Positions 2 to 22,293 of a stretch of 64,000 nucleotides of DNA are shown here, one piece after another. The DNA is taken from assembly GCF_057098645.1 (NCBI RefSeq), contig NZ_CM169472.1. One strand, given 5' to 3'. The position numbers were made by a program, and so were the translations under genes. The notes beneath the pieces are model-generated. The model searched no databases, was not told the DNA's origin, and saw nothing but the letters and a program-made list of their open reading frames with translations. Numbering within the stretch: position 1 is the first letter of the stretch; each line of letters opens with the position of its first letter.

Positions 2-289
2 TACTGGACGCACCCAGAATACGCCAACCTGTTTGGGGATAGAGAGGCAATTTCAGCTGATGAGTTCAGATCTTTCTGCAAGCAGCATGGCATTGAATCA
101 TCAATTGTTGAAATGGAAAACGACAACAATCAAACGGTAATTGACGCGTATTTTGAAGATGGGAATCCAAACATCAGTGGATGGGAGCCAAGCATGCCAG
201 ATGGAAAAGGATGGTTTGTCGGTTCGATTCACGATACAGAAGACGGTCCGATCTGCGTTTGGTTCAGGAATGTAGATAAGGCCGCATAG
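2..289 (+). CDS. Phage early-region protein, C-terminal fragment (5' end outside window)
   Basis: Open frame from the window edge to TAG at 287..289 (about 95 codons), same strand as the downstream phage operon. No start codon in window. Confidence 0.35.
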   Translation, partial: YWTHPEYANLFGDREAISADEFRSFCKQHGIESSIVEMENDNNQTVIDAYFEDGNPNISGWEPSMPDGKGWFVGSIHDTEDGPICVWFRNVDKAA

Positions 290-352
290 TCGGCCTTTAT
301 TTTTGGCATAAACAAGAGAATAAACACTGCACTGAATTATTTGAGGTGAGAT

Positions 353-823
353 ATGACAAAATCATGGAGCGTACCTTTTCCTGAATCAGAAACTGAACAT
401 GATGGAATGCCTGTTTTCTGGAGATTCCAAGCGACAGTTGAAGAAGATGGAATCAAAATATTCGCACTTCAATATATAGCTTTTCATCAGACAGAGCATT
501 ATGCATGGTTGGTTCCTTCGCATTGGATTGTTAATTTTAAACCAGCACCAAATCAGTGGTTACAGGAATGGAAACAAAGGAGAAATAGATATGCAATTAA
601 GAAAGTAGCAAAAAATGCAGAAAGATCTTTTGCATTCCCGACGAAGAAACTTGCCATTGAAAGTTTATTGCGCCGGAAGAAATACCATTTGATGAGAATC
701 AAACAAGATTTGGCTGTTGTATCAACTCTTGTTGATGGGATGAAGAATATTGATACATCAACACCAGATATTGAATATAACTTTGGACACAACCAAGAAA
801 CAGAAAATTGGGTGTTTTATTAG
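353..823 (+). CDS. Hypothetical phage protein (156 aa), function unknown
   Basis: ORF with a GAGGTGA Shine-Dalgarno-like sequence just upstream of the ATG. AT-rich codon usage typical of phage accessory genes. No family recognised. Confidence 0.55.
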   Translation: MTKSWSVPFPESETEHDGMPVFWRFQATVEEDGIKIFALQYIAFHQTEHYAWLVPSHWIVNFKPAPNQWLQEWKQRRNRYAIKKVAKNAERSFAFPTKKLAIESLLRRKKYHLMRIKQDLAVVSTLVDGMKNIDTSTPDIEYNFGHNQETENWVFY

Positions 824-973
824 TACGAATAAGCACTGTATATTCATTCCAACGAGTGAATACACGGAGCAATGTCGCTCGTAACTAAACAGGAGCCGAC
901 TTGTTCTGATTATTGGAAATCTTCTTTGCCATCCAATGTGAGGGCGTTTTTTTATCTATGAGGATATGAATAG

Positions 974-1342
974 ATGTCAAACATCAAAAAATACATCATT
1001 GATTACGACTGGAAAGCATCAATAGAAATTGAAATCGACCATGACGTAATGACAGAGGAAAAACTTCACCAGATTAATAATTTCTGGTCAGACTCTGAAT
1101 ACCGACTCAATAAACACGGCGCTGTATTAAATGCTGTATTAATCATGCTGGCGCAACATGCTCTGCTTATAGCAATTTCGAAAGACTTAAATGCATATGG
1201 TGTTGTTTGTGAGTTCGACTGGGATGATGGAAATGGTCAGAAAGGATGGCCTCCAATGGATGGTAGTGAAGGAATAAGAATTACCGATATCGATACATCA
1301 GGAATATTTGATTCAGATGATATGACTATCAAGGCCGCCTGA
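974..1342 (+). CDS. ea10: Lambda Ea10-like protein
   Basis: 122-aa translation matches my recollection of lambda Ea10 and sits immediately upstream of cIII, as in lambda. Confidence 0.7.
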   Translation: MSNIKKYIIDYDWKASIEIEIDHDVMTEEKLHQINNFWSDSEYRLNKHGAVLNAVLIMLAQHALLIAISKDLNAYGVVCEFDWDDGNGQKGWPPMDGSEGIRITDIDTSGIFDSDDMTIKAA

Positions 1343-1414
1343 GTGCGGTTTTACCGCATACCAATAACGCTTCACTCGAGGCGTTTTTCGTTATGTATAA
1401 ATAAGGAGCACACC

Positions 1415-1579
1415 ATGCAATATGCCATTGCAGGGTGGCCTGTTGCTGGCTGCCCTTCCGAATCTTTACTTGAACGAATCACCCGTAAATTACGTGACGG
1501 ATGGAAACGACTTATCGACATACTTAATCAGCCAGGAGTCCCCAAAAATGGATCAAATACTTATGGCTATCCAGACTAA
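1415..1579 (+). CDS. cIII: CIII (FtsH inhibitor, stabilises CII)
   Basis: 54-aa translation [54 protein letters not shown], recognised as lambda CIII. Internal ATG at 1415 with AAGGAG RBS upstream. Confidence 0.8.
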   Translation: MQYAIAGWPVAGCPSESLLERITRKLRDGWKRLIDILNQPGVPKNGSNTYGYPD

Positions 1580-1691
1580 ATTCACTATCGCCACTTTTAT
1601 TGGCGATGAAAAGATGTTTCGTGAGGCCGTCGACGCTTATAAAAAATGGATATTAATACTGAAACTGAGATCAGGCAAAAGCATTCACTAA
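1548..1691 (+). CDS. kil: Kil (host-killing / cell division inhibitor)
   Basis: 47-aa translation [47 protein letters not shown], lambda Kil-like. Overlaps the cIII 3' end in another frame as in lambda. Confidence 0.75.
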
Positions 1692-1766
1692 TCCCCTTTC
1701 CTGTTTTCCTAATCAGCCTGGCATTTCGCGGGCGATATTTTCACAGCCATTTTCAGGAGTTCAGCC

Positions 1767-2063
1767 ATGAACGCTTATTACATTCAGGATCGTCTTGAGG
1801 CTCAGAGTTGGGCGCGTCACTACCAGCAGATCGCCCGTGAAGAGAAAGAGGCAGAACTGGCAGACGACATGGAAAAAGGCCTGCCCCAGCACCTGTTTGA
1901 ATCGCTATGCATCGATCATTTGCAACGCCACGGGGCCAGCAAAAAAGCCATTACCCGTGCGTTTGATGACGATGTTGAGTTTCAGGAGCGCATGGCAGAA
2001 CACATCCGGTACATGGTTGAAACCATTGCTCACCACCAGGTTGATATTGATTCAGAGGTATAA
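1767..2063 (+). CDS. gam: Gam (RecBCD inhibitor), 98-aa form
   Basis: Translation [39 protein letters not shown]... recognised as lambda Gam. Directly upstream of bet. Confidence 0.9.
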
Positions 2064-2068
2064 AACGG

Positions 2069-2854
2069 ATGAGTACAGCACTCGCAACGCTGGCTGGGAA
2101 GCTGGCTGAACGTGTCGGCATGGATTCTGTCGACCCACAGGAACTGATCACCACTCTTCGCCAGACGGCATTTAAAGGTGATGCCAGCGATGCGCAGTTC
2201 ATCGCATTGTTGATCGTCGCCAACCAGTACGGCCTTAATCCGTGGACGAAAGAAATTTACGCCTTCCCTGATAAGCAGAACGGCATCGTTCCGGTGGTGG
2301 GCGTTGATGGCTGGTCCCGCATCATCAATGAAAACCAGCAGTTTGATGGCATGGACTTTGAGCAGGACAATGAATCATGTACATGCAGGATTTACCGCAA
2401 GGACCGTAATCATCCGATCTGCGTTACCGAATGGATGGATGAATGCCGCCGCGAACCATTCAAAACCCGCGAAGGCAGAGAAATCACCGGACCGTGGCAG
2501 TCGCATCCCAAACGGATGTTACGGCATAAATCCATGATTCAGTGTGCCCGTCTCGCCTTCGGATTTGCTGGTATCTATGACAAGGATGAAGCCGAGCGCA
2601 TTGTCGAAAATACTGCATACACTGCAGAACGTCAGCTGGAACGCGACATCACTCCGGTTAACGATGAAACCATGCAGGAGATTAACACTCTGCTAATCGC
2701 CCTGGATAAAACATGGGATGACGACTTATTGCCGCTCTGTTCCCAGATATTTCGCCGCGACATTCGCGCATCGTCAGAACTGACACAGGCCGAAGCAGTG
2801 AAAGCTCTTGGATTCCTGAAACAGAAAGCCACTGAGCAGAAGGTGGCAGCATGA
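2069..2854 (+). CDS. bet: Bet (Red beta single-strand annealing protein)
   Basis: 261-aa translation [48 protein letters not shown]... recognised as lambda Bet. Confidence 0.92.
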
Positions 2855-3531
2855 CACCGGACATTATCCTGCAGCGTACCGGGATCGACGTGAGAGCTGT
2901 CGAACAGGGGGATGATGCATGGCACAAATTACGGCTCGGCGTCATCACCGCTTCAGAAGTTCACAACGTGATAGCAAAGCCCCGCTCAGGAAAGAAGTGG
3001 CCTGACATGAAAATGTCCTACTTCCACACCCTGCTGGCTGAGGTTTGCACCGGTGTGGCTCCGGAAGTTAATGCTAAGGCGCTGGCCTGGGGAAAACAGT
3101 ACGAGAACGACGCCAGAACCCTGTTTGAATTCACTTCCGGCGTGAATGTTACTGAATCCCCGATCATCTATCGCGACGAAAGTATGCGTACCGCCTGCTC
3201 TCCGGATGGATTATGCAGTGACGGCAACGGCCTTGAGCTGAAATGTCCGTTTACCTCCCGGGATTTCATGAAATTCCGGCTCGGTGGTTTCGAGGCCATA
3301 AAATCAGCTTACATGGCCCAGGTGCAATTCAGCATGTGGGTGACTCGAAAAGATGCCTGGTACTTTGCCAACTATGACCCGCGCATGAAGCGTGAAGGCC
3401 TGCATTATGTCGTGGTCGAGCGGGATGAAAAATACATGGCTGGTTTTGACGAGATGGTGCCGGAGTTCATCGAAAAAATGGACGAGGCACTGGCTGAAAT
3501 TGGTTTTGTATTTGGGGAGCAATGGCGATGA
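2851..3531 (+). CDS. exo: Exo (Red alpha 5'-3' exonuclease)
   Basis: 226-aa translation [40 protein letters not shown]... recognised as lambda Exo. Start overlaps the bet stop (ATGA). Confidence 0.92.
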
Positions 3532-3710
3532 AGCATCCTCACGATAATATCCGGGTAGGCGCGATCACTTTCGTCTACTCCGTTACAAAGCGAGGCTGGG
3601 TATTTCCCGGCCTTTCTGTTATCCGAAATCCGCTGAAAGCCCAGCGGCTGGCTGAGGAGATAAATAATAAACGAGGGGCTGTATGCACAAAGCATCTCCT
3701 GTTGAGTTAA
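3522..3710 (+). CDS. Small phage ORF (62 aa), lambda orf61/orf63/orf60a-region equivalent
   Basis: Start overlaps the exo 3' end. Position matches the small ORFs downstream of exo in lambda. No function known. Confidence 0.45.
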
Positions 3711-3874
3711 GAACGAGCATTGAGATTGCACATAGCCTTGCTCAAATTGGAGTCAGGTTTGTGCCAATACCAGTAGAAACAGACGAAGAATTTCATACGT
3801 TAGCCGCATCCCTTTCACAAAAGCTGGAAATGATGGTGGCGAAAGCAGAAGCAGATGAGAGAGACCAGGTATGA
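3683..3874 (+). CDS. Small phage ORF (63 aa)
   Basis: Overlaps the preceding ORF, which is typical phage gene packing. Acidic C-terminus. Confidence 0.45.
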   Translation: MHKASPVELRTSIEIAHSLAQIGVRFVPIPVETDEEFHTLAASLSQKLEMMVAKAEADERDQV

Positions 3875-3954
3875 CAACCACTGAATGCATTTTTCTGGCA
3901 GCGGGCTTCATATTCTGTGTGCTTATGCTTGCCGACATGGGACTTGTTCAATGA
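3871..3954 (+). CDS. Putative 27-aa hydrophobic micropeptide
   Basis: ATG at 3871 overlaps the upstream stop (ATGA). Translation MTTTECIFLAAGFIFCVLMLADMGLVQ is one predicted transmembrane helix. Its stop overlaps the next ATG (3951). Confidence 0.3.
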   Translation: MTTTECIFLAAGFIFCVLMLADMGLVQ

Positions 3955-4166
3955 CACCTCAGCAAGAAAACGCCCTTCGCAGTATTGCCCGTCAGGCTAA
4001 TTCTGAAATCAAAAAAGCCAGACAGCAGTTTCCGGATAAAAACGTCGATGACATTTGCCGTAGCGTACTGAAGAAGCACCGCGAAACGGTAACGCTGATG
4101 GGATTCACACCGACTCACTTAAGTCTGGCAATCGGTATGTTAAACGGCGTCTTTAAGGAACGGTGA
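3951..4166 (+). CDS. Small phage ORF (71 aa)
   Basis: Internal ATG of ORF 3885..4166, chosen because it is translationally coupled to the upstream micropeptide. Translation MTPQQENALRSIARQANSEIKKARQQF... Confidence 0.4.
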   Translation: MTPQQENALRSIARQANSEIKKARQQFPDKNVDDICRSVLKKHRETVTLMGFTPTHLSLAIGMLNGVFKER

Positions 4167-4264
4167 ACATGAAAAGCAAAATCATCAGGGAGCTACAGGC
4201 TCCTTTTTTATTATTCGCATTCACCCTCAAGCGTATTAACCAACAATTCAGGGATTAATGAAAG

Positions 4265-4486
4265 ATGGCAGATATCATTGATTCAGCATCAGAAATTGAA
4301 GAATTACAGCGCAATACAGCAATAAAAATGCGTCGCCTGAACTACCAGACTGTATCCGCAACTCATTGTTGTGAGTGTGGCGATCCGATAGATGAACGAA
4401 GACGCCTGGCAGTTCAGGGTTGTCGGACTTGTGCAAGTTGCCAGGAGGATCTGGAGCTTATCAGTAAACAGAGAGGTTCGAAGTGA
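4265..4486 (+). CDS. TraR/DksA-family C4 zinc-finger protein (lambda orf73-like)
   Basis: 73 aa with CxxC...CxxC (CCECGDPIDERRRLAVQGCRTCASC), the DksA/TraR zinc-ribbon signature. Confidence 0.7.
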   Translation: MADIIDSASEIEELQRNTAIKMRRLNYQTVSATHCCECGDPIDERRRLAVQGCRTCASCQEDLELISKQRGSK

Positions 4487-5169
4487 GCGAAATTAATTAT
4501 CAGGCACTGCGTGAAAAGGCAGAGAAAGCAACTAAAGGAAGCTACATCGTAGGGCATACATCTGTTAACCAGCACGGCAATTTAACAGGAGTTTTTGTTT
4601 GCCAAAAATGGAAAGGAGAACCCGGTGGTGTGATTGCGGAATGTCATGTTAACTGCCTGGTTGAAACAGATGTTCAGGCTTATGCAAACGCTGAATTTAT
4701 TGCTGCTTTTAATCCAAATGTTGCGCTGGCACTACTGGATGAACGGGAAAGAAACCAGCAATACATCAAACGCCGCGACCAGGAGAACGAGGAGATTGCG
4801 CTTACGGTTGGGAAGCTGCGCGTTGAGCTGGAAGCCGCAGAGAAGCGCAACGCAAAATTACAAAGCGAGAATGCATACATCCGCAACCGGTACAAAGAAC
4901 TGGACCTGTTAATCGGGAAAAACATTCTGGTCATGCAGGCTGCCATTATCGAATGGCAATCGACTGGCGACGCTAAAAGCGGACTGGCATGGATTTATAA
5001 CACACTGTTTGGCCCAGGCGAATTGCCGGACGAATCTGAGAAAGATGCTCAGGCCTACTTTAATCGCAAATATGCACCGATTGACGAAAAGCTTATGGCG
5101 CTTCACAAGTGGTTTTGGGAACAAAGTGAAGCCGAGCGCGCCGCTGGCATTTGCATCAAAGGAGAGTGA
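4483..5169 (+). CDS. Ea22-like coiled-coil accessory protein (228 aa)
   Basis: Central heptad-rich segment (ALTVGKLRVELEAAEKRNAKLQSENAYIRNRYKELD). Position between exo and xis as for lambda ea22. Function unknown. Confidence 0.5.
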   Translation: MSEINYQALREKAEKATKGSYIVGHTSVNQHGNLTGVFVCQKWKGEPGGVIAECHVNCLVETDVQAYANAEFIAAFNPNVALALLDERERNQQYIKRRDQENEEIALTVGKLRVELEAAEKRNAKLQSENAYIRNRYKELDLLIGKNILVMQAAIIEWQSTGDAKSGLAWIYNTLFGPGELPDESEKDAQAYFNRKYAPIDEKLMALHKWFWEQSEAERAAGICIKGE

Positions 5170-5170
5170 T

Positions 5171-5674
5171 ATGACCACTATTACCAAAGAGCGACTACTG
5201 ACAATCAAGCAGTGGCGCGAAACATACGGACCTGGTAGCAACGTTGTACTGCCAGCAGAAGAAGCGGAAGAACTGGCACGAATTGCTCTGGCATCGCTGG
5301 AAGCAAAACCAATAGCGTGGGAATGCGGCGAAAACATAATCCTGTTTAATCCTGACACAGTTGAAGCATACGCAAAACGTGCGGAGATATCACCTAAACC
5401 ACTATATGCCGCGCCGCCAGTTCCGGTAACTCCGGATGGTTGGATAAGCTGTAGTGAGCAAATGCCAGAAATGGGAGAGCGACAATGCTATGTGTTAGCG
5501 GCTGACTTTAAAAACAACTACCCGCCAAACATCCCCAACACTCAGGTCGGCGTATATGGCGACTGGTTTAATGATGGCAATCCCACTTGGGATGACGGTG
5601 ATGGCGAAGACCTGTATCTCAAAGAGGTAACCCACTGGATGCCGCTACCGGAACCGCCGCAGGAGGTGAAGTGA
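5171..5674 (+). CDS. DUF551-like phage protein (167 aa)
   Basis: Internal ATG at 5171 immediately after the Ea22-like stop, preceded by AAAGGAGAG. C-terminal W/D/G-rich region (GDWFNDGNPTWDDGDGEDLYLKEVTHWMPLP) resembles DUF551 proteins common in prophage accessory regions. Confidence 0.55.
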   Translation: MTTITKERLLTIKQWRETYGPGSNVVLPAEEAEELARIALASLEAKPIAWECGENIILFNPDTVEAYAKRAEISPKPLYAAPPVPVTPDGWISCSEQMPEMGERQCYVLAADFKNNYPPNIPNTQVGVYGDWFNDGNPTWDDGDGEDLYLKEVTHWMPLPEPPQEVK

Positions 5675-5757
5675 TGAATTGGCCTGAAGCATTCACCGCT
5701 GTAGGAGTTGCAATAGCGGTGGCATTTATTCTGTATTCGCTTTTCCGCTGGGGATAA
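5674..5757 (+). CDS. Putative 27-aa hydrophobic micropeptide
   Basis: ATG overlaps the upstream TGA (5672..5674), with AGGAGGTGA RBS. Translation MNWPEAFTAVGVAIAVAFILYSLFRWG is one predicted transmembrane helix. Confidence 0.3.
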   Translation: MNWPEAFTAVGVAIAVAFILYSLFRWG

Positions 5758-5761
5758 AGGA

Positions 5762-6004
5762 ATGTTCGCTCTGATTCAACGTGGTCAGATATACACCGAT
5801 AGCGCCGGCTATCCGATAAAAATTCTTCGCTGCATAAACAACACTGTGTTGTACAGAAGAATGGATGGGCGAACACAGTCGGTAAAAATAAACGATTTTA
5901 ATGAACTGTTTGAACGGATTGATCACCAGGAATACCGACAAATTCTGGCAGAAACAGAGCAGGAAGCTCATCTGAAAAAATTACGAGCCATGAAAAGGAA
6001 GTAA
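5762..6004 (+). CDS. Hypothetical phage protein (80 aa)
   Basis: ORF begins 5 nt after the micropeptide stop, same operon orientation. No family recognised. Confidence 0.45.
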   Translation: MFALIQRGQIYTDSAGYPIKILRCINNTVLYRRMDGRTQSVKINDFNELFERIDHQEYRQILAETEQEAHLKKLRAMKRK

Positions 6005-6007
6005 AGA

Positions 6008-6142
6008 ATGAATAAAGCATTTGAACGATGGGTCCACCAGCGTTACGGCAATCGCTATGACCTGACGCGAGGTGGTGACGGTTTCTACTGTCGTGAAGTT
6101 GTGAAGCGAATGTTTGAAGTGTGGTGCCACTGCCGTGGATGA
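6008..6142 (+). CDS. Putative 44-aa Cys/His-rich small protein
   Basis: ATG 4 nt after the preceding stop. Translation MNKAFERWVHQRYGNRYDLTRGGDGFYCREVVKRMFEVWCHCRG. Not in the supplied ORF track, which has a 60-aa cut-off. Confidence 0.3.
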   Translation: MNKAFERWVHQRYGNRYDLTRGGDGFYCREVVKRMFEVWCHCRG

Positions 6143-6160
6143 AAATTTTATGAGGTTGGC

Positions 6161-6415
6161 ATGCAGACAATCATCTATCAGATAACCCCCAGCAAATGGT
6201 GTACGGAGAGAGTCCTCATTGCATCAACAGGGCTAAAGCCTGGCACCATCGAGCGAGCCAGAAGAAAGTCATGGATGCAGGGAAAAGAATACCGCCATTA
6301 CGCTGTAGAAGGTGATCCGGGGCATTACAGTGAATGCCTGTACAACATCGAAGAAATTATGCGATGGATCGAAAACCAGAAACAACCAGGTGCCAAAAAT
6401 GCAAGTTCCGGTTAA
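6161..6415 (+). CDS. xis: Excisionase-like DNA-binding protein
   Basis: 84-aa basic protein immediately upstream of int, as expected for a phage Xis. Assignment is by position and composition, not by strong sequence recognition. Confidence 0.5.
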   Translation: MQTIIYQITPSKWCTERVLIASTGLKPGTIERARRKSWMQGKEYRHYAVEGDPGHYSECLYNIEEIMRWIENQKQPGAKNASSG

Positions 6416-6448
6416 CCTGTTAATGCTCCTGGACGTCTGGGAGGTTTT

Positions 6449-7735
6449 ATGAGTAACGCATCATACCCGACAGGCGTTGAAAACCATGGAGGATCACTCC
6501 GTATATGGTTTCACTATAATGGCAAACGTGTCAGAGAAAACCTCGGTGTTCCTGACACCGCCAAAAACCGGAAGATCGCTGGTGAGCTTCGCACTTCTGT
6601 TTGTTTTGCAATCAGAATGGGGAGTTTCGACTACGCCGCGCAGTTCCCTAATTCCCCTAACCTGAAACACTTTGGTCTGGGAAAAAGAGAGATAACCGTT
6701 AAGGCACTTTCGGAAAAATGGTTGGACCTTAAGAAAATTGAGATTTGTACGAATGCACTTAACCGTTACCAGTCAGTAATTAAAAACATGTTACCAATGT
6801 TAGGTGAAAAAAAACTGGTTTCATCCATAACAAAAGAGGATTTACTTTTCGTAAGGAGAGATTTGTTGACCGGTTACCAAAAGCTTTCTAATGGAAAGAC
6901 TTCTTCCATAAAAGGGCGCTCAGTGGTCACGGTAAACTACTATATGACAACCATAGCTGGAATGTTTCAATTTGCAACAGATAATGGTTATACCTCAGGA
7001 AACCCATTTAACGGTCTGGCTCCCTTAAAAAAGTCCAAGGTAAAACCAGATCCTCTCACCCGTGACGAATTTATTCGTTTTATTGAGGCTTGCCGTCATC
7101 AACAAACAAAAAACCTGTGGATTCTCGCTGTATACACGGGTATTCGTCACGGGGAGTTGGTATCGCTGGCATGGGAAGATATAGACCTTAAAGCAAGGAC
7201 TATAACCATCCGTAGAAATTATACAAAACTTGGCGAATTCACTCCACCAAAAACCGATGCTGGCACCGGAAGGACAATTCATCTGGTTCAACCAGCTATT
7301 GATGCTCTTAAAAGCCAAGCGGAAATGACCATGCTTGGAAAGCAACATTCTGTAGAGGTAAAGCAGAGGGAATATGGGAGAACTGCTGTGCATAAATGTA
7401 CTTTTGTTTTTAGCCCTCAGGTAATAAAACAGCAGCTGTTGTCTGGACCTCACTACAAAGTTGACTCCATCAGGGAGTCATGGACAAGTATCTTAAAACG
7501 CGCAGGTCTGAGACACAGAAAATCGTACCAATCCAGGCATACTTATGCATGCTGGTCACTTGCCGCTGGAGCTAATCCTAGTTTTATCGCAAGCCAGATG
7601 GGCCACACAAACGCACAAATGGTATTCAATGTTTACGGAGCATGGATGAAAGACAACAATCACGAACAGATAGAACTCCTTAACAAAAGACTATCTGAAA
7701 GTGTCCCATGTATGCCCCATAAGAAAGTGGGGTAA
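6449..7735 (+). CDS. int: Phage integrase, tyrosine recombinase family
   Basis: 428 aa. C-terminal catalytic region with conserved Arg/His and terminal Tyr (RHTYACW...GHTNAQMVFNVYGAW). Last phage gene before the host junction. Confidence 0.9.
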   Translation: MSNASYPTGVENHGGSLRIWFHYNGKRVRENLGVPDTAKNRKIAGELRTSVCFAIRMGSFDYAAQFPNSPNLKHFGLGKREITVKALSEKWLDLKKIEICTNALNRYQSVIKNMLPMLGEKKLVSSITKEDLLFVRRDLLTGYQKLSNGKTSSIKGRSVVTVNYYMTTIAGMFQFATDNGYTSGNPFNGLAPLKKSKVKPDPLTRDEFIRFIEACRHQQTKNLWILAVYTGIRHGELVSLAWEDIDLKARTITIRRNYTKLGEFTPPKTDAGTGRTIHLVQPAIDALKSQAEMTMLGKQHSVEVKQREYGRTAVHKCTFVFSPQVIKQQLLSGPHYKVDSIRESWTSILKRAGLRHRKSYQSRHTYACWSLAAGANPSFIASQMGHTNAQMVFNVYGAWMKDNNHEQIELLNKRLSESVPCMPHKKVG

Positions 7736-7773
7736 AATAAAAACTTGTAAAATCAGTTAGTTTACCCTTAATC

Positions 7774-20177: not shown

Positions 20178-21614
20178 TCAGCGTTTGTAACCCCCGCCCA
20201 ACGCACCAGTGAGTTGAATGGAGGCATCCAGCCACTGCCCTTGCAATAACAGGCCATTGGCCCGCTCACGCAGCGCGGGGATTCTGGCTTCGCTGACGCG
20301 GGAACCAGCAATGATGCCCGCGTTAAAGCGCGCCTGCGCAAGACCTACCACACGCAAGGCATCGCGCTCAATTTGCGCCTGATGCTGGTTTTTCTCCGCC
20401 AGTGTCTGAACCTGACTGGCTGCCCGCGCCACGTCATTCACCGCTTCAACCACCGCTTTGTTGTAGCTGGCGATAGACAAGTTGCTTTCGGCTTTTGCGA
20501 TATCGAGATTGGCGTTAAGACGACCACTATCGAAAATGGGTAGCGTCAGGCCTGCCGTAACGCCCATTTGCTGCGCGGAATGACGGAACAGATCGCTTAA
20601 GTGCAACGCATCCTGTTGCAGGAAGGCCATCAGGTTGATGTCAGGATAAAATGCCGCTTTTGCCGCATCAATGGTGCTTAGCGATGACTCAACGTACCAG
20701 TGCGCCGCCTGCAAATCTGCCCGCCGGGCCAGTAAGGAGTACCCCAGTTCATCAGGAAGCTGGCTTGCCACTTTCGGCAACGCGACCGGTTTAAGCTTCA
20801 ATGACTTTGTCTGGTTATTTGTAAGTGCGCTTAACCGTGCCTCAATAATTTTCATTTTCCCCGCGACATCGTTGAGCTGCTGCCGGGTTTTGCTGGCATT
20901 AATATCGGTTTCCACACCTTCAACTGAAGAAGTAATCCCGTTCTGATATAGCTGGCGATCGGTCGCGATAATGGTGTTCTGCTCTTTTTCTATTTGCTGC
21001 AAGACCGTGTTTAACGCCGCCTGGGTTTGCCACTCCCAGTACAGGCGGGCTACGCTGCCAGCCAGCAATTGGCGGGTTTGCTCGCGTTCCGCCGCCCGTG
21101 CTTTAACCGTACCCAAGCGGGCAGTAACCTCCGCCCGATTCTTTCCCCAGATATCGAGATGCCAGCCCGCCGTTAAGCCAAAAGTACCGTTGGTGTACCA
21201 CGGGCCGGTCGTACCTGCGGCCGGATCGTTCAGAGCAAACGGCCCCATTAAGCCTTCTGCCGACATTTTTTGCCGCTCCATATCCGCCGAAAAGTCGATC
21301 TGCGGACCATCCTGAGTGGCAACTGCCTTCGCCTGGGCTTCAGCTAGCTGAATGCGCTGTTCAGCCACCTGCATATCCGGTGCGTTCTGTAGTGCATTGT
21401 TAATTAAGGAAGTGAGTTGATTATCGTGATACTCCAGCCACCATTGGCTGTCTGGCCAACCATTTTTCAGCGCCGTGGGTAATGCGGTGTCAACTTGTGC
21501 AGCGGGCGTTTGCTGGCTTAACGCCTGGCGGGTTTCATGCATAGGCGCACACCCGGCCAGCATCAGTAACAGCGGAAAACAGGCGATGGCTGGATAAAAG
21601 GAATCACGATTCAT
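20178..21614 (-). CDS. mdtQ: Outer-membrane efflux lipoprotein (OMF/TolC-like family), apparently intact
   Basis: Start set at ATG giving MNRDSFYPAIACFPLLLMLAGCAP with lipobox LAGC. 478-aa uninterrupted frame. Confidence 0.8.
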   Translation of the reverse strand: MNRDSFYPAIACFPLLLMLAGCAPMHETRQALSQQTPAAQVDTALPTALKNGWPDSQWWLEYHDNQLTSLINNALQNAPDMQVAEQRIQLAEAQAKAVATQDGPQIDFSADMERQKMSAEGLMGPFALNDPAAGTTGPWYTNGTFGLTAGWHLDIWGKNRAEVTARLGTVKARAAEREQTRQLLAGSVARLYWEWQTQAALNTVLQQIEKEQNTIIATDRQLYQNGITSSVEGVETDINASKTRQQLNDVAGKMKIIEARLSALTNNQTKSLKLKPVALPKVASQLPDELGYSLLARRADLQAAHWYVESSLSTIDAAKAAFYPDINLMAFLQQDALHLSDLFRHSAQQMGVTAGLTLPIFDSGRLNANLDIAKAESNLSIASYNKAVVEAVNDVARAASQVQTLAEKNQHQAQIERDALRVVGLAQARFNAGIIAGSRVSEARIPALRERANGLLLQGQWLDASIQLTGALGGGYKR

Positions 21615-21837
21615 GGGGGAATAATCAGGTAAGAAAAGGTGCGCGGAGATTACCGTGTGTTGCGATATATTTTTTAGTTTCGCGTGGCAATACATCAGTG
21701 GCAATAAAACGACATATCCAGAAAAATATACACTAAGTGAATGATATCTTCCGATTTATCTTAATCGTTTATGGATAACGGCAAAGGGCTTCGTTTTTTC
21801 CTATACTTATTCAGCACTCACAAATAAAGGAACGCCA

Positions 21838-21921
21838 ATGAAAATTATACTCTGGGCTGTATTGATTATTTTCCTGATTGGGCTACTGGTGGTGACTGGC
21901 GTATTTAAGATGATATTTTAA
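21838..21921 (+). CDS. yohP: Small membrane protein YohP (27 aa)
   Basis: ATG preceded by AAAGGAACG. Translation MKIILWAVLIIFLIGLLVVTGVFKMIF is a single transmembrane helix. Confidence 0.55.
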   Translation: MKIILWAVLIIFLIGLLVVTGVFKMIF

Positions 21922-22019
21922 AATTAATTAATGTCATCAGGTCCGAAAATAACGAGAATATTTCAGTCTCTCATCCTGTTGCGCTCCTGTCATGTGCATT
22001 GCTTCATATAATCACTGGC

Positions 22020-22235
22020 GCAAGGAGCGCGCAGGGGGCGGCCAATCGCCGCCGCCCCCTGCACCCCCGGGCTCTGGCGAACAAAATCGCCGCTGCGCGG
22101 TGCCCTCGGCTTATCCCTTACGGCTACCGGGTCGGGCGCGAGGTAACATCCCTGTAAAACGCGCCCTCAGCCCACATCCATGTGGGCTGCCCCGGCCTTC
22201 AGGGAACGCCTCGGCAATTTTGACGCCACCAAACA
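22020..22235. repeat. GC-rich structured intergenic element with multiple perfect hairpins
   Basis: Perfect 11-bp stem cagggggcggc/gccgccccctg (22032..22061) and 10-bp stem cagcccacat/atgtgggctg (22168..22189). Local GC is far above the flanks. The overlapping 86-aa Pro/Arg/Gly-rich ORF is probably not coding. Confidence 0.4.
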
Positions 22236-22293
22236 ACCGTGCGGCCTATTGATAAAGAGCTAACACATTGTCAAAAAACATCACTATGGTTTT

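Follow-up and report, generated by a model that had tools for sequence, protein, structure and literature searches.

The 64,000-nucleotide window analyzed here (contig NZ_CM169472.1 of assembly GCF_057098645.1) contains an intact mdtQ gene, which is almost certainly the ordinary wild-type allele, and the K-12 copy of the same gene is disrupted by the loss of a single A. An earlier note on this DNA had proposed that this strain may keep an outer membrane channel that K-12 lost. This proposal was supported, in that the full-length gene is present here and absent from K-12. The strain is not special in this respect, as possession of the full-length gene appears to be the norm of the species. That mdtQ occurs as an intact gene and, in K-12, as a pseudogene is already known and documented; intact mdtQ is annotated in thousands of RefSeq genomes, and its presence here carries little weight as a discovery. 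The coordinates of the gene and of the features around it are collected in Table 1.

Table 1. Features of the mdtQ locus in the window (positions are those of the whole window).
Feature	Position	Strand	Basis or remark
mdtQ (formerly yohG) coding sequence, intact, 478 codons plus stop	20178..21614	-	ORF, translation, profile matches
Predicted lipoprotein signal peptide MNRDSFYPAIACFPLLLMLAGC, codons 1-22	21549..21614	-	Lipobox regular expression
Predicted lipobox L19-A20-G21-C22 of MdtQ	21549-21560	-	Sequence
A5 run (T5 on the + strand), gene nt 148-152, codons 50-51; A4 in K-12	21463..21467	-	Alignment with b2139
Synonymous difference, gene nt 499, codon 167; T here, C in K-12	21116	-	Alignment
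Synonymous difference, gene nt 1425, codon 475; T here, G in K-12	20190	-	Alignment
Divergent mdtQ-yohP intergenic region	21615..21837	.	Sequence
yohP, 27-amino-acid small membrane protein	21838-21921	+	Divergent from mdtQ
G+C-rich noncoding dispersed repeat, the TRIP1c element described in PMC10888264	~21978-22250		Between yohP and dusC

Integrity of the mdtQ coding sequence

The mdtQ open reading frame lies on the minus strand, which the earlier note had left unstated, and begins with an ATG at 21614 and ends in a stop codon at 20178-20180 (1,437 nt, 478 amino acids plus stop). The list of open reading frames and a direct translation both gave zero internal stops, bearing out the claim of an uninterrupted frame; the probability of a 478-codon open frame arising by chance is about 1e-10. 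The maximal open reading frame extends upstream as far as a TTG at 21704. The start that yields 478 residues is the one chosen by RefSeq, and it gives the protein a canonical N-terminal lipoprotein signal peptide. The nucleotide sequence of the gene is 100% identical to that of the annotated mdtQ of strain MS15047 (WP_001078139.1), and the protein accession of mdtQ in strain RM12761 (O145:H28) is likewise WP_001078139.1. A cryptic frameshift, raised in the earlier note as something that careful realignment might reveal, was looked for and rejected, because the protein covers all 478 positions of the MdtQ model (NF008524) and the gene is identical in nucleotide sequence to its MS15047 counterpart.

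We then analyzed the N terminus of MdtQ by applying the lipobox regular expression [LVI][ASTVI][GAS]C to the first 40 residues, and obtained a single match, at residue 19. The signal LLLMLAGC, already pointed out in the earlier note, was found at residues 15-22. The residue at position +2 after the lipobox cysteine is an alanine, and the aspartate that serves as an inner membrane retention signal is absent.

Family membership and predicted function

MdtQ scored 1024.4 bits against the NCBIfam MdtQ equivalog NF008524 (cutoff, 650), with residues 1-478 aligned to profile positions 1-478 of 478. It also scored 274 bits against the NodT subfamily model TIGR01845 (cutoff, 210.05; residues 16-475) and matched the Pfam OEP family PF02321 with an E value of 1.7e-30. 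The OEP match comprised two stretches, the better of which joined residues 69-266 to profile positions 3-187 of 187, and two tandem OEP repeats, the hallmark of outer membrane factors (OMFs), are present in the protein. Consistent with the definition of the NodT lipoprotein subfamily, MdtQ has a predicted lipobox cysteine (LAGC, residues 19-22) and no aspartate at position +2. The scores for the MdtP, CusC, AdeK, AdeC, TdeA, and TolC models were all under the curated cutoffs. An identity as MdtP was rejected (NF007390, 356.2 bits versus a cutoff of 597), MdtP being a paralog, and so was membership in the TolC subfamily of type I secretion (TIGR01844, 54.2 bits versus a cutoff of 225.15), which is of the same fold class.

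We propose that the MdtQ precursor would be exported and then lipidated on Cys22 via the lipoprotein pathway, and that the alanine at position +2, in place of an aspartate, would lead to its sorting to the outer membrane. There, MdtQ would be expected to assemble into a homotrimer, like VceC, OprM, CusC, and CmeC, with a 12-stranded beta-barrel forming the pore and a long alpha-helical tunnel reaching through the periplasm. By docking onto an adaptor in the periplasm and a pump in the inner membrane, the tunnel would allow substrates to be expelled.

The genes around mdtQ are arranged in the order yohF-mdtQ-yohP-dusC, where yohF encodes an SDR oxidoreductase and yohP and dusC are divergent from mdtQ. 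The same neighbors were found in MG1655, W3110, BW25113, MS15047, RM12761, and 8 other strains. The genes directly beside mdtQ include neither an adaptor nor a pump gene, and no adaptor/pump pair was found within about 10 kb of it on either side. Indeed, the only transporter genes in this interval are those of the YehWXY/OsmF ABC importer and of the putative exporter yohJK, which do not qualify as such a pair. With neither kind of gene beside mdtQ, any partner of the protein must be encoded elsewhere. TolC is also encoded apart from its pumps, and still works. In the mechanism proposed above, mdtQ would thus be an orphan gene whose partner pump, if there is one, would be supplied by another locus.

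The orphan position of mdtQ also bears on what the channel may carry. It is possible, if doubtful, that MdtQ is an outer membrane channel that does not serve drugs but acts as an exit duct for type I secretion or for the export of metabolites or metals. No pump adjoins the gene, and the designation mdt rests on small susceptibility shifts in W3110, a strain in which mdtQ was already frameshifted. Such a role fits less well with the profile scores, as the best family is that of the drug- and metal-efflux OMFs (NodT) and the score in the TolC subfamily was under the cutoff; moreover, it contests the substrate alone and not the mechanism. Returning to MdtQ as an efflux OMF, we consider it unlikely, though worth stating, that wild E. 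coli has in this protein a working second general exit duct that partners pumps or partly substitutes for TolC. If this were true, a TolC-independent route of efflux or secretion would have been overlooked in natural and pathogenic strains, including O145:H28-like Shiga-toxigenic E. coli (STEC).

Conservation of mdtQ and selection on the intact gene

To place the window allele among those of the species, we surveyed 5,426 complete E. coli genomes. At least 80% of the length of the mdtQ locus is retained in no fewer than 5,392 of them. Eight alleles with identities ranging from 99.6% down to 97.4%, among them those of O157, O111, ST131 strain JJ1886, and ATCC 25922, were all annotated as intact and 1,437 bp long (8/8). 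Across the divergent alleles, dN/dS calculated by the method of Nei and Gojobori was 0.035-0.098, with dS values of up to about 0.10, and 57 of the 80 polymorphic sites fell at third codon positions. The low dN/dS, the excess of third-position changes, and the intactness of divergent alleles indicate that mdtQ is under strong purifying selection; judging from these genomes, an intact mdtQ appears to be the norm in nearly all E. coli, with K-12 as the exception. A 2025 review also considers mdtQ to be core to E. coli despite its label as a pseudogene in K-12 (PMC11762307).

These data bear directly on the possibility that the intact gene is effectively silent, that is, a cryptic relic whose loss from K-12 was neutral and from which the strain of the window gains nothing. 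We consider this very unlikely, even if several observations are compatible with it. The mdtQ promoter must fall within the divergent mdtQ-yohP intergenic region, and a promoter and terminator scan yielded no convincing match and none above those obtained in shuffled sequence. The sole sigma-70-like match on the minus strand, at 21937-21910, lies inside or just past yohP. Directly 5' of the mdtQ ATG (…CCTGATTATTCCCCC-ATG), no purine-rich Shine-Dalgarno-like sequence was found. K-12 grows normally in spite of lacking a functional mdtQ. According to the same 2025 review, the promoter has had no experimental confirmation and the function of the protein has not been elucidated (PMC11762307). In Salmonella Typhi and Paratyphi A, mdtQ has been truncated occasionally and independently, most isolates being intact (PMC9241588), and the recurrence of these truncations indicates that mdtQ is not required in some niches. 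Nevertheless, the constraint measured here, in a gene that is kept by nearly all genomes and whose frame is open in every divergent allele examined, is not what would be expected of a silent gene, and the K-12 pseudogene illustrates the outcome once constraint is lost. Taken together, the intactness of the gene and the purifying selection acting on it suggest that the MdtQ encoded in the window is functional.

A single lost nucleotide in K-12

In agreement with the statement in the earlier note that the K-12 gene is a disrupted pseudogene, mdtQ of MG1655 (b2139) is annotated as a pseudogene of 1,436 bp, and the genes of W3110 and BW25113 are annotated as "frameshifted." The three alleles are identical to each other, so that all three strains carry the frameshift and none of them has an intact gene. 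The phrase "the mdtQ pseudogene" also appears in a recent study, for the gene adjacent to yohP in K-12 (PMC12719787). The b2139 locus occupies the same position as mdtQ of the window and has nearly the same haplotype. EcoGene-style annotation marks b2139 as a pseudogene as well, and the locus was historically split into yohG and yohH.

The alignment to the K-12 locus that the earlier note had suggested revealed the lesion. Over 1,437 positions, the window gene and b2139 differ at 3 nucleotides, 2 of these differences being synonymous and the third being the loss of one A from the A5 run (Table 1). As a result, the K-12 gene reads …L49 K50, continues with M-V-G…, and terminates after 69 amino acids, giving a product that retains the signal peptide and lacks both OEP repeats. 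The frame 3' of the lesion is still fully open in K-12, and restoring one A to this allele yields a protein identical to the window MdtQ at 478 of 478 residues. Since the remainder of the frame is open and the repair of a single A suffices, the inactivation is single, recent, and trivially revertible. The K-12 laboratory lineage lost mdtQ by one recent -1 frameshift (A5 to A4), which leaves a 69-amino-acid stub. Restoration of the frame in K-12 by phase variation or by transcriptional slippage at the A run was set aside as unlikely, because a run of 4-5 nt is far shorter than the known slippery tracts.

We next determined how the two alleles are distributed among the 5,426 complete genomes. 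The A4 allele of K-12, searched as an 80-mer, had exact matches in 355 genomes, and the A5 allele of the window, searched as an 81-mer, in 3,046. Among the matches listed, all nonexact full-length matches to the K-12 query span 81 nt and hence correspond to A5 with additional single-nucleotide polymorphisms. The strain background of 60 of the 355 A4 carriers was inspected individually, and all 60 were laboratory derivatives of K-12, including MG1655 variants, C600, J53, DH5alpha, DH1, RR1, NCM3722, AG100, HST04, and ER strains; no natural isolate was found among these 60. From this sample of 60 of the 355 carriers, the A4 lesion appears to be specific to the K-12 laboratory lineage. An artefact of sequencing or annotation, in which case the K-12 gene would really be intact and the strains alike, might be suspected of a lesion in an A run, as homopolymer-length errors are frequent in some sequencing technologies, but it is effectively refuted by the recurrence of the same A4 allele in 355 independently assembled complete genomes (MG1655, W3110, BW25113, C600, DH5alpha, DH1, J53, NCM3722, and AG100 among them), by a run length of just 4-5 nt, and by the absence of A4 from all sampled non-K-12 genomes.

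Consequences for published mdtQ phenotypes

The absence of a single A makes K-12 a natural mdtQ knockout, and data obtained in K-12 are therefore uninformative on the role of MdtQ. Nearly the whole of E. coli efflux genetics comes from this background, in which mdtQ is broken. Altered responses to puromycin, acriflavine, and tetraphenylarsonium are the only mdtQ-null phenotypes cited, with Sulavik et al. 2001 named as their source (PMC11762307), and the data of Sulavik et al. are described in a citing paper as having been obtained in W3110 (PMC8865010). Going by these citing accounts, the phenotypes quoted for "mdtQ mutants" came from a strain that was already mutant, and since W3110 mdtQ was frameshifted beforehand, they cannot report the loss of the full-length channel. 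Expression or transport data for intact MdtQ were not found in the literature searched. The study of this protein calls for a non-K-12 strain or for a K-12 allele repaired by the addition of a single A.

Features flanking mdtQ and the wider window

The small protein YohP, encoded divergently from mdtQ, was reported in 2025 to lower the membrane potential and to set off the stringent response (PMC12719787). In strain 88-3493, a longer yohP is annotated (147 bp), and the match of this strain to the locus falls 3 bases short of the query. In ATCC 25922, yohF is annotated as a pseudogene owing to an internal stop and mdtQ is intact, which is the reverse of the situation in K-12. The decay of yohF next to an intact mdtQ indicates that lineage-specific decay of single genes occurs at this locus. 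The TRIP1c repeat is placed 363 bp from the start of mdtQ, on the upstream side, and 43 bp past the stop of dusC, and its 273-bp stretch occurs in a median of 3 copies per E. coli genome, with a maximum of 8. Recombination between TRIP1 copies has led to chromosomal rearrangements beside yohG/mdtQ in about 2% of genomes (PMC10888264).

The 25 kb around mdtQ matched best to genomes of O145:H28 STEC. Positions 8001-33000 of the window (25,000 nt) span 25,004 nt in RM12761 (NZ_CP007133.1), without being base-for-base identical, and the position of mdtQ is shifted by 5 nt against the coordinates of the RM12761 record, both of which imply a few small intergenic indels. Further away from mdtQ, at about 880-7767, we observed the right end of a lambdoid prophage, running from yfdP/yfdQ/yfdR to xisR, with an excisionase and a tyrosine integrase that ends near 7730. 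The prophage adjoins mlrA (yehV), and homology to K-12 starts only at nt 44 of mlrA (window position 7768), indicating that the prophage integrated in the 5' end of this gene, where Stx-type prophages of STEC classically integrate. In RM12761, mlrA is annotated as a shortened gene of 702 bp, versus 732 bp in K-12. MlrA is an activator of curli and csgD expression, and the prophage insertion in mlrA may have an effect on biofilm regulation.

Comparison with known outer membrane factors

The closest solved structure to MdtQ is that of VceC (1yc9), with an E value of 1e-39 over residues 51-477, and further matches were to the solved trimeric efflux channels OprM, CmeC, SilC, CusC, OprN, MtrE, and OprJ. 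Homology to VceC, OprM (1wp1), CmeC (4mt4), CusC (3pik), and SilC (9rmm), with E values of 1e-39 to 1e-21, extends over nearly the full length and includes both OEP repeats, although the solved channels are distant homologs of MdtQ (phmmer E values of 1e-39 to 1e-16). The alignments of CusC and SilC begin at residue 15 of MdtQ. OprM, CusC, and SilC are N-terminally lipidated, as is predicted for MdtQ, and the lipidation of OprM and CusC is well established. Unlike these channels, whose cognate pumps are known and encoded adjacent to them, MdtQ has neither a solved structure nor a known partner.

Within E. coli, mdtQ is one of four TolC-type OMF genes, together with tolC, cusC, and mdtP. MdtP represents the closest paralog family (356 bits over MdtQ residues 17-477) and is also an OMF lipoprotein of the NodT type. 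However, mdtP shares its operon with adaptor and pump genes (the putative MdtNOP system), whereas mdtQ stands alone. TolC is not a lipoprotein. MdtQ, formerly YohG, is counted in the literature among the three TolC homologs of E. coli, and its sequence identity to TolC is 12% (PMC11762307). Finally, the protein encoded in the window is the same, with no difference, as the one known as MdtQ (YohG) and grouped in NF008524, for example as WP_001078139.1 and, in O157, as the ortholog with UniProt accession Q8X659.
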